The position numbers and the translations under genes were made by a program. DNA of 64,000 nt from Hyphomicrobiales bacterium (GTDB taxonomy: Bacteria > Pseudomonadota > Alphaproteobacteria > Rhizobiales > JANPGK01): NCBI GenBank assembly GCA_031423895.1, contig JANPGK010000012.1:73-64072 (forward strand), in the 5' to 3' direction. Shown here in pieces: positions 12,797-57,789 of the stretch (the first letter of the stretch is position 1; each line of letters opens with the position of its first letter). The notes under the pieces are model-generated. The model made no database searches, was not told the DNA's origin, and saw nothing but the letters and a program-made list of their open reading frames with translations.

Positions 12797-13126
12797 ATGA
12801 GTATAGACCTAAATACATTAAATGATATGTTCAACTCATTACATACAAAATATGACTATTATTTTAATAATGCTTATATTTTAGATAAACTACAAAAACG
12901 AGATCTAACCTTAGCCAACAACAATTTAACACGCGTATCACAATTTTTAAGTGCTGCAAATCCAACTCCTGCAGCACTTAAAATAGCGAATACGAATCTC
13001 ATAACAGTTGCAAATTACTTTGCTAATTTCCCAAAAATTCCTGGTGCGGCATTACTCATTGGTGGATTTGTGGCTGCGGCCTCATGGTGGAGCAACATCA
13101 AATCGACACCACGCAATTGGTCATAA
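12797..13126 (+). CDS. Small tail-anchored protein, family member P1 (109 aa)
   Basis: aggag lies 9 nt upstream. The gene is AT-rich. The C-terminus is LLIGGFVAAASWWSNIKSTPRNWS (TM helix plus WW-x-N-x-K cap). It is a paralogue of P2 and P4. Confidence 0.8.
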   Translation: MSIDLNTLNDMFNSLHTKYDYYFNNAYILDKLQKRDLTLANNNLTRVSQFLSAANPTPAALKIANTNLITVANYFANFPKIPGAALLIGGFVAAASWWSNIKSTPRNWS

Positions 13127-13219
13127 CACTCGCCCACTAATTTTAGGGTTGTAATTCATATATATACAGTAATATTTTAGATGTTAGAATGCTTTTTAAC
13201 CAATAATAGAGATCAGAAA

Positions 13220-13576
13220 ATGACAATTTCAGAATTAAAATTTAAACTAGAAAATCTCACACAAGAATATGTGGCGTTTAACAAATATGTTAATAGTTTA
13301 AGTCCAATACAACAGAACCAGCTTACAAATATGGCACCAAAATGTTTTGATGCTGTAAAAAACAATTTACCTTTTGCCGCTGACAGTGCATTCAGCTTTA
13401 ATATAGTTAAGCAGCAAATTGGCCACTTGGAATATTACGCAGCCAGTTTTCGTAAAACGCTAGGGCCTATGGGGCTTAAGCTCATGTCAACTGGGAGCGT
13501 GCTTATAGGCGGCATTTTTGTAGCTACATCTGCATGGTGGAACAGCCGTAAAACGGAACGCAACACTTTGTCATAA
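13220..13576 (+). CDS. Small tail-anchored protein, family member P2 (118 aa; alternative ATG at 13181)
   Basis: MTISELKFKLENLTQEY..LEYYAASFRKTLG..VLIGGIFVATSAWWNSRKTERNTLS. I chose the start by N-terminal homology to P1 and P4. Confidence 0.78.
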   Translation: MTISELKFKLENLTQEYVAFNKYVNSLSPIQQNQLTNMAPKCFDAVKNNLPFAADSAFSFNIVKQQIGHLEYYAASFRKTLGPMGLKLMSTGSVLIGGIFVATSAWWNSRKTERNTLS

Positions 13577-13762
13577 ATTAGTTATTGGATAAGTGCGGCC
13601 TTAGCTCTGTAAATAGAGACAATCATTAATTTTATACTGCGCTATATGTAAAATATGTATAGCTGCACTGCAAAAGGCCCAGATTGACTCCAATTCGTTT
13701 CACCACAATGATATTTAAGTAGCCTTATTCGAATGCTATTTTTTTAAAATGGAGTGAATATT

Positions 13763-14311
13763 ATGAATAGTGGATATCAACCAATCTCTGGTTCACATGT
13801 TACCAAATCAAAAGATTTCTTTGATGGAAAAAATAAGTTTGACTTTGGAACATACTATAACCGTGTGGTAAAACGTATTGACACAGCAACTATTGAATTT
13901 CGTAATGCTGCTGGCATAGCAGCACCTGCACCATATCAAAACAAAGGGCTTGTGAAATTCAGTGATATTACGCCTGAGCGCCATGGTTGGGGGGTACCAA
14001 AACCATTAAAAACACCACTTTTTGGTGAATTCGGAAAGGTTGAGGCCTCTATTGCAAAAGCCACGCAATATTTATGGAAAATGACGGGCGGCACATTGGG
14101 TCGAGATGGAACCCTATTTAAATCCGCAATGATGAAACTTACACACAGTGAAATTAAAAGCATTCACAATGCGCAGCGACGGGCCTATTATCATTTGCGA
14201 AATGCCGAGAAACTACTCGCTACGCTGTGTGAAAATACAAAAGTACCACTGGTTGCTGCTGGGCTTGCACTTCTTGCATTTATAATGCCCTCGCAAAAAT
14301 CCGATACGTGA
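13763..14311 (+). CDS. Tail-anchored orphan protein P3 (182 aa; alternative GTG at 13754)
   Basis: ggag lies 9 nt upstream of the ATG. The N-domain is unrelated to P1, P2 and P4, but the protein ends in a single helix VPLVAAGLALLAFIMPSQKSDT. Confidence 0.7.
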   Translation: MNSGYQPISGSHVTKSKDFFDGKNKFDFGTYYNRVVKRIDTATIEFRNAAGIAAPAPYQNKGLVKFSDITPERHGWGVPKPLKTPLFGEFGKVEASIAKATQYLWKMTGGTLGRDGTLFKSAMMKLTHSEIKSIHNAQRRAYYHLRNAEKLLATLCENTKVPLVAAGLALLAFIMPSQKSDT

Positions 14312-55872: not shown

Positions 55873-55884
55873 AGGACGCGTATC

Positions 55885-57291
55885 ATGGGTAAAGTGACAG
55901 GATTTTTAGAAATCGATCGGTTGGAGCAAAAATATGAGCCAACTGGGGATCGTATCCGCCATTACCGCGAGTTCACCTTGCCGATGGAAGCGCGCGATGT
56001 GGAAAAGCAAGCCTCTCGCTGCATGGATTGCGGCATTCCTTATTGCCACACAGGCTGCCCTGTGAATAACCAAATCCCCGATTGGAACGATTTGGTCTAT
56101 CAATCCGACTGGCAAAATGCGGCCCATAATTTGCATTCCACCAATAACTTCCCTGAATTTACAGGTCGTACCTGCCCCGCACCATGCGAGGATGCTTGCA
56201 CATTATATTTAGAAGGCGCACCGGTTACCATTAAATCGATCGAGAATTCTATCGTTGAGCGCGCATGGAAAGAAGGTTGGGTGCAGCCAAAACCTGCGAA
56301 AGTAAAAACAGGCAAATCTGTGGCCATCATCGGATCAGGCCCTGCAGGCTTGGCTGCCGCACAACAATTGGCGCGCGCCGGCCATAATGTGCATGTGTAT
56401 GAGCGTGAAGCCAAAGCGGGCGGTTTATTGCGATATGGCATCCCCGATTTTAAAATGGAAAAATGGACGATCGACCGCCGCCTTGCGCAGCTCGAAGCCG
56501 AAGGTGTGATTTTTTACTATAATATGAATGTTGGCACCAGTGTATCGGCGCAAAAGCTAGTGGATAATCATGATGCGGTGATTTTGGCCATTGGTGCGGA
56601 AGCCCCGCGAGACCCGCAATTGCCAGGGCAACAACTGCAAGGCGTAGAATATGCAATGCCCTATCTCACGCAATCCAACAAAAAAGTATCAGGCCAAGGC
56701 ATTGGCGATGAGACACAAATTTTCGCGACTGGCAAACATGTGGTGGTGATCGGCGGCGGCGATACAGCCTCCGACTGCGTGGGCACAGCCTTCCGCCAAG
56801 GGGCGTTGGCCGTTACTCAGCTCGATATTCGCCCCGTGCCCCCCAAAAAAGAAGATGTCCTCACCGTTTGGCCCTATTACCCCACCAAAATGCGGGTATC
56901 CTCCAGCCAAGCTGAAGGCGTAGAGCGCGAATTTGCTGTTGCCACCATTGCTATTGAAGGTGAAAATGGCGTTGCCACCCAAATCAAATGTGCGCGTGTG
57001 GATGCAAAACGCCAGCCAATTGCAGGCAGTGAGTTTTATATCAAGGCCGATTTGGTGTTGCTGGCCATCGGGTTCAGCGGCGCAATGACCACTACATTTG
57101 TCGACGCGCTCGGCATTGAAGCCAACGCCAACGGCACACTCAAAGCCGACGCAAAAGCGTTTTCAACCAAACACCCTAAAGTATTTGCAACGGGCGATGC
57201 GCGCCGTGGCCAATCGCTTGTGGTATGGGCCATCCGTGAAGGGCGCGATTGCGCTGCCGCAGTGGATGTGGCGTTAAAAGCTTCAGTCTAA
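55885..57291 (+). CDS. gltD: Glutamate synthase small subunit (NADPH)
   Basis: ..RCMDCGIPYCH..GCPVNNQIPDWN.. forms the Fe-S clusters. ..VAIIGSGPAGLAAA.. is a dinucleotide-binding motif. Confidence 0.96.
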   Translation: MGKVTGFLEIDRLEQKYEPTGDRIRHYREFTLPMEARDVEKQASRCMDCGIPYCHTGCPVNNQIPDWNDLVYQSDWQNAAHNLHSTNNFPEFTGRTCPAPCEDACTLYLEGAPVTIKSIENSIVERAWKEGWVQPKPAKVKTGKSVAIIGSGPAGLAAAQQLARAGHNVHVYEREAKAGGLLRYGIPDFKMEKWTIDRRLAQLEAEGVIFYYNMNVGTSVSAQKLVDNHDAVILAIGAEAPRDPQLPGQQLQGVEYAMPYLTQSNKKVSGQGIGDETQIFATGKHVVVIGGGDTASDCVGTAFRQGALAVTQLDIRPVPPKKEDVLTVWPYYPTKMRVSSSQAEGVEREFAVATIAIEGENGVATQIKCARVDAKRQPIAGSEFYIKADLVLLAIGFSGAMTTTFVDALGIEANANGTLKADAKAFSTKHPKVFATGDARRGQSLVVWAIREGRDCAAAVDVALKASV

Positions 57292-57384
57292 GCGTGCTCG
57301 CCGCACTTAATATTTTGATTTTACTTCTGCACGCAGCTGTGCCATAGTACATCTCTATTCAATAGATATATTTTGGAGCCTATA

Positions 57385-57789
57385 ATGACAATCCTCATCA
57401 AAGAACTTAGCGAATACAATCAATACGTAACTGATATAAAGACAACAATTGCAAAATTAGACCTCGAAATTACAAATGCTAAAATTGAAGCAAAAAAGTC
57501 GCCAACAATTTTAAATAGTTTAAGTAATTTCTTCTCAGGTGCAACGACTGAGCTTACAAACGCAAAGTCAACCGCACTAGTTATGAACCCAAAAACAACA
57601 ATTAATATGAAAGAATACGAAGGTTTTATAAAAAATAAAGGTACTATTGAAAGCAGTATCCACTTCGTAAAAACCTACCTTATAACCATAAAGAAAAATT
57701 TGCCCACTTCTATCTTGGTGTTGGCAGGGCTTGTAGGTGCGAGTGCATGGTTCGCCTCGCGCAATCTATCAAAAGACCAGATTTCATAA
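57385..57789 (+). CDS. Small tail-anchored protein, family member P5 (134 aa)
   Basis: tggag lies 7 nt upstream of the ATG. MTILIKELSEYNQY.. resembles the P1/P2/P4 N-termini. The C-terminus is ILVLAGLVGASAWFASRNLSKDQIS. The gene is AT-rich. Confidence 0.75.
   Translation: MTILIKELSEYNQYVTDIKTTIAKLDLEITNAKIEAKKSPTILNSLSNFFSGATTELTNAKSTALVMNPKTTINMKEYEGFIKNKGTIESSIHFVKTYLITIKKNLPTSILVLAGLVGASAWFASRNLSKDQIS

Follow-up and report, generated by a model that had tools for sequence, protein, structure and literature searches.

Eight small genes in AT-rich islets at operon seams of an alphaproteobacterium share a candidate tail-anchor layout

Bacterial tail-anchored proteins, among them DjlC, Flk and TssL/SciP of Escherichia coli and a set of candidates from Streptomyces, lack a signal peptide and combine one C-terminal hydrophobic segment with diverse N-domains (PMC6794478; PMC3087755). 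The same description fits the predicted products of eight small genes, P1 to P8, that we describe here in a 64-kb stretch of DNA (contig JANPGK010000012.1 of a Hyphomicrobiales bacterium; hereafter the window). A bacterial genome has few known tail-anchored proteins, and these either have an assigned function or belong to a conserved family, whereas here eight orphans, known from sequence alone, are found within 45 kb. The closest working analogues are ElaB, YqjD and YgaM of E. coli (DUF883; PF05957/PF19029), small ribosome- and stress-associated tail-anchored proteins of the inner membrane. These proteins, of about 100-110 amino acids (aa), consist of a polar helical cytoplasmic N-domain, a single Gly-rich C-terminal transmembrane (TM) helix and a tail that is very short and basic, and they occur as several paralogues in a genome; in general build the P proteins resemble them. 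The TM helix of YqjD is more hydrophobic than the P segments, with a Kyte-Doolittle hydropathy over 19 residues (KD19) of about 1.9. No match to PF05957 or PF19029 was found for any of the eight (Pfam, E<=1), and DUF883 is a widespread core-genome family, whereas the P genes are orphans in AT-rich islets. In kind, the set would be a new orphan family, joined by look-alikes, that belongs to the established class of tail-anchored proteins of bacteria.

The pattern formed by the P genes is real, statistically solid and unusual. All eight open reading frames (ORFs), of 109-182 aa, were recovered at the coordinates that an earlier note on this DNA had given for them. They are distributed over five islets, which are listed here with the genes that they contain:

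12744-14730: islet with P1-P4, between hisD and fliE; its internal spacers have 20-33% G+C
12797-13126, forward strand: P1, 109 aa, P1/P2/P4 paralogue family; AGGAG 11 nt upstream of the ATG
13220-13576, forward strand: P2, 118 aa counted from Met14, family member; predicted three-helix bundle plus C-terminal hydrophobic segment
13763-14311, forward strand: P3, 182 aa, sequence unrelated to the P1/P2/P4 family; GGAG upstream
14368-14715, forward strand: P4, 115 aa, family member, TTG start
33247-33891: islet with P6, between ccmA and gdh
33221-33694, reverse strand: P6, 157 aa, singleton, antisense between ccmA and gdh
39297-39829: islet with P7, between ccmB and ccmC
39298-39705, reverse strand: P7, 135 aa, singleton, antisense between ccmB and ccmC; AAGGA upstream
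45076-45722: islet with P8, between ftsH and tilS
45243-45728, forward strand: P8, 161 aa, singleton, antisense between tilS and ftsH
57292-57791: islet with P5, between gltD and coaBC
57385-57789, forward strand: P5, 134 aa, probable distant P1/P2/P4 paralogue, between gltD and convergent coaBC; GGAG upstream

We scored a protein as having the layout if exactly one 15-residue Kyte-Doolittle window (KD15) reached at least 1.6, if this window ended no more than 25 residues from the C-terminus, and if the first 40 residues were free of any hydrophobic stretch. In a greedy gene map of the window, which comprises about 55 genes, the layout is found in eight of the ten genes with a G+C content below 0.42 but in only two of 45 backbone genes (Fisher p=1.5e-6), the latter being HisD and AroQ, both soluble enzymes. 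Shuffling the residues of each protein yields the layout in 3.5-10% of trials, and the joint chance of obtaining it across five independent sequence lineages is about 1e-6. In Streptomyces coelicolor, a curated genome-wide screen retained only 20 tail-anchored candidates (PMC3087755); measured against this number, eight cases among about 55 genes amount to a strong local excess of the layout.

How uniform is this build? The earlier note had proposed one architecture throughout. A single C-terminal hydrophobic segment and the lack of an N-terminal signal indeed hold for all eight proteins, whereas a helical N-domain is confidently predicted for P2 only, and the N-domain of P3 differs in being rich in Pro and Gly (13%) over most of its length (residues 4-116). 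The short C-terminal tail was also borne out, with 7-17 residues following the best KD15 window and 4-16 following the charge-free run. Consistent with tail anchoring, the segment of each protein lies at the extreme C-terminus, where the tail is so short that translation ends before it can leave the ribosome, and all eight are without an N-terminal hydrophobic segment that could represent a signal peptide or signal anchor. In seven of the eight, the longest charge-free run (18-22 aa) coincides with the C-terminal segment; in P1, for example, it reads IPGAALLIGGFVAAASWWSNI and is followed by an 8-residue tail. The most hydrophobic core of the set is found in P3 (VPLVAAGLALLAFIM; KD15 2.53) and precedes a 7-residue tail. 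Gly, Ala and Ser abound in the cores. In six of the eight proteins [LVIM]-Pro comes before the core, and in most of them Trp or other aromatic residues and then Lys or Arg follow it. It is the position of the segment, its uniqueness within each protein and this flanking pattern that are distinctive. Sorting signals of the PEP-CTERM or GlyGly-CTERM type do not account for the segments: the P proteins have no N-terminal Sec signal, NCBIfam at E<=1 gave chance-level matches only, and the tails of such signals are shorter and more basic than those of the P proteins.

The islets stand out from their surroundings by composition as well as by content. As claimed before, the P genes are AT-rich, with a G+C content between 0.32 (P7, the lowest of the eight) and 0.41 and a G+C content at third codon positions (GC3) of 0.22-0.35. 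The backbone has a G+C content of about 0.52, its individual genes falling at 0.46-0.57 and their GC3 mostly at 0.45-0.64. Hand counts made on two 60-nt lines, 18/60 G+C at 57421-57480 and 36/60 at 57181-57240, proved exact. Each islet forms a sharp trough in a 400-bp composition profile. Classical islands they are not, as had been surmised: they hold P genes only, are without an integrase or transposase gene, a tRNA target, flanking direct repeats or ends shared between islets, and neither tRNA genes nor Rfam families were detected in the whole 64-kb window. A mobile-element origin was considered and rejected, the islets having no DNA similarity, ends, terminal repeats or upstream motifs in common. 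Phage or defence genes (PHROGs and PADLOC, no match below E=0.01) and, for P6-P8, plasmids (tblastn, no match) were likewise discarded as sources.

The backbone genes that flank the islets are, by Pfam, those that the earlier note had named: histidinol dehydrogenase and FliE, CcmA and an NAD-glutamate dehydrogenase, CcmB and CcmC, FtsH and TilS, and GltD and CoaBC. That the islets sit at seams of a conserved gene order could be demonstrated directly for ccmA, ccmB and ccmC, which are collinear in 63 of 80 loci from relatives. The gap between ccmA and ccmB has an extrapolated median of 21 bp in relatives but measures 5387 bp here, where it holds P6 and the gene for a 1575-aa NAD-specific glutamate dehydrogenase (gdh; 33892-38619, forward strand), and the gap between ccmB and ccmC has an extrapolated median of 91 bp in relatives compared with 533 bp here, where it holds P7. 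Thus, the ccm operon is split by a gene of normal composition as well as by AT-rich islets. Both ccm junctions are gene-free in the relatives, but these are too remote to reveal the ancestral state. The nearest CcmC is 51% identical (58% over the best local segment; GTDB, one genome per species), the nearest CcmG in JGI metagenomes 55%, and the aconitase about 68% identical to that of Hyphomicrobiales. These values mark the organism as an alphaproteobacterium that is loosely near Hyphomicrobiales and has no sampled close relative.

A further regularity concerns orientation. P6, P7 and P8 run antisense to the co-directional backbone genes on either side of them, and in each of the five islets the last P gene and a backbone gene end convergently, at distances from a 26-nt overlap to a 15-nt gap relative to the stop of the backbone gene. 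The 3' end of P6 overlaps the stop of ccmA by 26 nt (33221-33246) and P8 overlaps that of tilS by 6 nt (45723-45728), while the remaining convergent ends lie within 1-15 nt of each other, at ccmB (39296-39298), coaBC (57789-57792) and fliE (14715-14731). Because such ends leave no room for a terminator, convergent transcripts would overlap.

Are the P proteins members of one family? The earlier note had assumed so, but homology is demonstrable only for P1, P2 and P4 (BLASTP E from 1e-5 to 2e-20; P1 against P4, E=4e-16). They align over their whole length at 28-40% amino-acid identity, the upper value being that of P4 and P2, and conserve Y-x5-K, LIGG and S-x-W(W), yet no nucleotide similarity among the three genes is detectable; they are thus likely to be old duplicates that have been kept as proteins. 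P5 is a borderline case. It matches P2 with E=5e-4 over 131 columns in a BLASTP comparison of the eight proteins, and it is the top non-self match of a P1/P2/P4 hidden Markov model (HMM) among 833 ORFs of the window (E=0.029); judged by these alignments, it is probably a distant paralogue. For P6, an HMM search against the family was not significant and hhalign gave a weak C-terminal match only (P=0.007, probability 5%), and a resemblance between the C-termini of P6 and P5 (ASVWAYSRT and ASAWFASRN) is not significant. Neither hhalign nor HMM tests revealed significant similarity of P3, P7 or P8 to the family profile, and a single family including P3, P6, P7 and P8 was therefore rejected. The set would thus appear to consist of one family of three or four members and four singletons that are alike in architecture only. 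Nor did the idea of an expanding family hold up: the paralogues are divergent (24-40% amino-acid identity), they share no DNA similarity and the databases hold just these copies, which together indicate that the duplications are old.

The proposal that the genes are lineage-specific has fared better. Neither a profile of P1, P2, P4 and P5 nor P3 has any homologue beyond the genome's own copies in billions of proteins. Among 5.8 billion clustered proteins the family profile matched nothing but its own members, and in an exhaustive HMMER scan of 1.84 billion representatives it returned its own members and a single artefact. This sole non-self match, P0010 (E=9e-4), is a four-fold tandem-repeat protein and was rejected because weak matches of its repeats add up. 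The search with P3 returned P3 only. No recognisable domain had been noticed in any of the eight, and Pfam, NCBIfam, PHROGs, PADLOC and PDB sequences indeed gave no meaningful match. Comparison with 160 loci of other alphaproteobacteria yielded no significant similarity either (best E=0.04). All eight proteins are singleton clusters that derive from one NCBI contig and one sequencing run. For P6-P8 the orphan status is less firm than for the family and P3, as it is based on Pfam, NCBIfam, PHROGs, PADLOC, plasmids and the 160 loci of relatives.

What might these proteins do? Tentatively, we favour the view that the P ORFs are genuine coding genes confined to a single, poorly sampled lineage of alphaproteobacteria, and that their small products are held at the cell's own inner membrane by one marginally hydrophobic C-terminal helix that is inserted post-translationally. 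What the analysis shows directly are the ORFs with their composition, orphan status and placement, the location of the hydrophobic segment and the fold predicted for P2, whereas membrane insertion, topology and any cellular role are features that we infer. We envision that each P protein would be a small, polar molecule, largely helical where modelled, at the cytoplasmic face of the inner membrane. Its hydrophobic segment would emerge from the ribosome only at termination, so that insertion would have to be post-translational. Conceivably, insertion might proceed unassisted or be aided by YidC or chaperones, as for the moderately hydrophobic tail anchors of E. coli. The N-domain, a predicted three-helix bundle in P2, would then remain cytoplasmic and serve as a binding module tethered to the membrane. 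At the level of the chromosome, AT-rich DNA of spacer-like composition would have entered at gene boundaries, in two cases within the ccmABC order, which is otherwise conserved.

Several observations weigh against this scenario, most of them relating to hydrophobicity. We calibrated hydropathy on more than 30 TM helices of the same window, taken from CcmB, CcmC, CcmG, FtsH, FliP, an acyltransferase and other membrane proteins. Whereas these genuine helices mostly reach KD19 values of 1.6-2.8, the P segments attain 1.15-1.75, with P8 at the upper end, and thereby rank below nearly all of them. A value of 1.15 is reached somewhere in 15 of 23 soluble proteins of the window, whose median maximum is 1.33, and owing to this overlap hydropathy alone does not establish a transmembrane helix. 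Simple Hessa sums for the C-terminal segments are positive (+2.9 to +6.7 kcal/mol), which implies that a Sec-type predictor may not call them as TM. In P7, the one protein whose longest charge-free run is not the C-terminal segment, the hydrophobic core is short (11-13 residues), LLIGALALFGV being an 11-residue run flanked by Arg and Glu. The tails carry a net charge of 0 to +2, which is unfavourable for translocation to the periplasm, and the C-terminal region of P2 has low confidence in AlphaFold2 (predicted local distance difference test, pLDDT, below 50). P4 has a TTG start without a Shine-Dalgarno motif and is absent from the gene calls of Logan contigs and from protein collections, and the P genes as a whole are known from one genome only. 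In E. coli, however, tail anchors with a grand average of hydropathy (GRAVY) of 1.04-1.57 insert efficiently, whereas the same segments do not when placed internally (PMC6794478). By this measure the P segments are compatible with tail anchoring, although this falls short of proof.

A different explanation, which we consider unlikely, would treat the P genes as fast-evolving or de novo orphans with little or no specific function. Their common layout would then be a signature of survivorship, with the C-terminal segment allowing a new polypeptide to be parked in the membrane. Such a filter would account for the same layout being found in at least five sequence-unrelated lineages, and it is in line with the lack of homologues in the family-profile and P3 searches and with the gene-free ccm positions of relatives. 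In terms of the usual benchmark for de novo genes, no homologue outside the lineage was found for the family profile and P3, and for P6-P8 the same was seen on a narrower search set. Yeast provides a precedent: its de novo proteins, which the P proteins would parallel, are sequence-unrelated and lineage-restricted, have a C-terminal TM segment and arise from AT- or T-rich, intergenic-like DNA, and their common C-terminal TM domain is recognised by post-translational insertion pathways that have been proposed as selective filters (Houghton et al., PMC11384008; Vakirlis et al., 2020, PMC7005711). The yeast case differs in that targeting to the endoplasmic reticulum relies on the eukaryotic GET and SND pathways and in that a comparison of syntenic sites in close relatives established de novo birth there. 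Moreover, unlike the yeast genes, the P1/P2/P4 lineage is old enough to have diverged paralogues, and the retention of fold and motifs at 28-40% identity implies age and purifying selection.

Composition speaks on both sides of this question. The range of the P genes (0.32-0.41) falls inside that of the genome's ordinary spacers, which mostly have 0.2-0.45 G+C (0.41 pooled), as would be expected for genes born from spacer DNA; AT-rich horizontal acquisition explains it equally well. The dinucleotide signature of the islets is unlike that of the backbone (delta* 110, compared with 35±11 for matched backbone samples) and also unlike that of ordinary spacers (delta* 104, from a small spacer sample), which would argue against a spacer origin, and it resembles that of the window's other AT-rich genes (delta* 52). 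It nevertheless keeps the overall shape of the backbone signature and thus fits a foreign or a native origin alike. A likeness exists, too, to the targets of MucR, a xenogeneic silencer of alphaproteobacteria that prefers AT-rich accessory genes in a GC-richer chromosome (PMC9410896; PMC8857273). This likeness concerns regulation only and is silent on the role of the proteins; by analogy, conditional expression of the P genes would be a reasonable expectation.

Three other AT-rich genes of the window are without the tail-anchor layout. One of them (4840-6198, reverse strand) encodes 452 aa at a G+C content of 0.39, has a good Shine-Dalgarno motif and no hydrophobic segment, gave no Pfam, PHROGs or PADLOC match and is a singleton in the protein collection; it represents a further accessory gene. 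The second (9180-9674, forward strand; 0.37) is also a singleton cluster; its product, a secreted protein, has two calcium-binding motifs of the EF-hand type in addition to a signal peptide and carries its hydrophobic segment at residues 1-21, unlike the eight P proteins. Within this gene lies a 135-bp direct duplication, whose 97% identity points to a recent internal repeat. The third, a gene of lowered G+C content (0.43) just downstream of ccmG (41338-42423, forward strand), encodes a membrane acyltransferase (Acyl_transf_3) and is preceded by a spacer of 89 bp with only 13% G+C (spacer and gene, 41249-42423).

Could the P proteins simply be soluble? In this quite improbable alternative, the C-terminal helix would pack as a fourth helix of the bundle, mediate oligomerisation or serve as a tag for degradation or partner binding. 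An AlphaFold2 model of P2, built on a four-sequence alignment, shows a three-helix bundle (helices 2-34, 42-65 and 70-103; pLDDT 87-91; predicted template modelling score, pTM, 0.61), whereas P6, modelled from its single sequence, comes out all-helical at a pLDDT of 47, too low to be reliable. Searched with Foldseek against the PDB and viral models, the P2 model returned generic helical bundles only (E >=0.5), and the top, non-significant matches among them were FAT-type domains of about 130 aa (p130Cas, FAK). These FAT-type domains are four-helix bundles. A packed fourth helix would agree with these matches, with the overlap between the KD19 values of the P segments and those of buried segments in soluble proteins of the window and with the positive delta-G sums. 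However, AlphaFold2 does not confidently pack the segment, and charge-free runs of 18-22 residues that contain Gly-Gly, are rich in Gly, Ala and Ser, are bracketed by Lys or Arg and precede Trp-Trp are unusual in soluble helices and typical of membrane interfaces. Likewise, the recurrence of the segment at the same position and with the same length in unrelated sequences is not readily explained by a soluble fold.

Improbable, and more clearly so, is a role as secreted effectors, that is, as substrates of a type III, IV or VI secretion system whose moderately hydrophobic C-terminal helix would avoid the bacterial signal recognition particle (SRP) and subsequently insert into a host membrane. 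The short cores and the basic or polar tails would suit such a function. Their combination resembles the tail-anchor signals of the eukaryotic mitochondrial outer membrane. Being AT-rich, orphan, multi-copy and scattered on the chromosome, the genes are also typical of effector repertoires, and their origin from a single sequencing run with Logan contig numbers above 450,000 would fit a host or metagenome sample. Hydrophobicity clearly below that of the organism's own TM helices has been reported for directly secreted TM effectors (PMC12981334), and a tail-anchored effector is known from Legionella (PMC12313075). TM effectors of type III and IV systems, such as the tail-anchored LpPIP of Legionella, have a simple topology, with one or two TM segments whose intermediate hydrophobicity lets them evade SRP, and are encoded by scattered, orphan, AT-rich genes (PMC12981334; PMC12313075); the P proteins would match them in these respects. 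Effector status is defined by translocation, though, and intermediate hydrophobicity is compatible with it rather than diagnostic. Against this role, no secretion-system gene is present within the 64-kb window besides flagellar ones, the window carries a full housekeeping set (his, glt, ccm, sdh and flagella) and nothing that would point to a reduced intracellular genome, the tails are only modestly charged, and the proteins are without a eukaryote-like domain, a SNARE or Inc signature or a significant structural match. SNAREs likewise place a helical cytoplasmic domain on a membrane anchor, but in these a heptad motif of about 60 residues directly precedes the anchor, in contrast to the compact three-helix bundle of the P2 model; no match to PF05739, PF00957 or PF00804 was found (Pfam, E<=1), and there was no SNARE among the 50 best Foldseek matches of P2 (all E>=0.7). 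Chlamydial Inc proteins, which also combine a helical cytoplasmic domain with an anchor, possess a bilobed hydrophobic domain of two helices, whereas the P proteins have a single C-terminal segment.

That the ORFs are no genes at all but chance open frames in AT-rich spacers or decayed remnants is very hard to sustain: the TTG start of P4, its missing Shine-Dalgarno motif and its absence from public gene calls would fit this idea, as would the flat G+C profile of P5 across the three codon positions (GC1, GC2 and GC3), but nearly all of each islet is taken up by ORFs of 109-182 codons, frames of such length are very improbable at about 35% G+C (about 7% of random codons being stops, we calculate a chance of about 5e-5 for an open frame of 135 codons), the paralogues keep protein-level similarity without any DNA similarity, four P genes have Shine-Dalgarno motifs, and P2 has a confident fold prediction. 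These motifs, of the GGAG/AGGA type, lie 10-13 nt upstream of the ATG in P1, P3, P5 and P7, and GC1 exceeds GC3 in most P genes. The likely starts are at 12797 for P1, 13220 for P2, 13763 for P3, 14368 for P4, 33694 (reverse strand) for P6, 39705 (reverse strand) for P7, 45243 for P8 and 57385 for P5. The P2 frame is open from 13181, which would give 131 aa, but the Met14 start aligns with the N-termini of P1 and P4, and the database copy has 118 aa; the P8 frame is open from a TTG at 45201. Seven of the eight P genes are present as called proteins in public records, P1 being called as a gene in both NCBI and Logan records, with P4 the exception. P4 has an intact frame and retains every family motif; it may be an unannotated gene or a copy in the course of losing expression.

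Two neighbourhoods of the islets deserve a remark in their own right. CcmA (32527-33246, forward strand) and CcmB (38634-39296, forward strand) are only about 27-43% identical to the proteins of other alphaproteobacteria, whereas the neighbouring aconitase reaches about 68%; judging from these identities, the ccm export components appear unusually diverged in this lineage. Beside the flagellar genes fliP, flgB, flgC and fliE, a gene on the reverse strand (18436-22122) encodes a 1228-aa protein with weak tetratricopeptide repeat (TPR)-type Pfam matches only, and a neighbouring ORF of 461 aa (16153-17538) has a sub-threshold match to FliO only.

What would the P genes mean for the biology of this lineage? 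If the segments are not anchors, the set would amount to orphan helical proteins of limited interest. If they are true anchors, as our tentatively preferred reading holds, this 64-kb stretch contains tail-anchored proteins in numbers well above what the few known from any one bacterial genome would lead one to expect, each without relatives and including a new three-helix-bundle family. Already the ccmABC case illustrates how antisense AT-rich insertions can break up a conserved operon. In a bolder and rather doubtful interpretation by analogy, the P genes might be a bacterial counterpart of the yeast de novo pattern, in which unrelated genes from spacer-like AT-rich DNA tend to survive if their products end in a marginally hydrophobic helix, with post-translational membrane insertion acting as the filter, or the repertoire of effectors for a host membrane. 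If so, they would offer a testable bacterial case in which new or foreign genes are tolerated because a C-terminal helix parks their products in the membrane; alternatively, the signature could point to a set of effectors in an alphaproteobacterial lineage that is as yet unsampled. On both views, a single build would have been reached by five independent sequence lineages within 45 kb, and this convergence of unrelated orphans is the part most worth pursuing.

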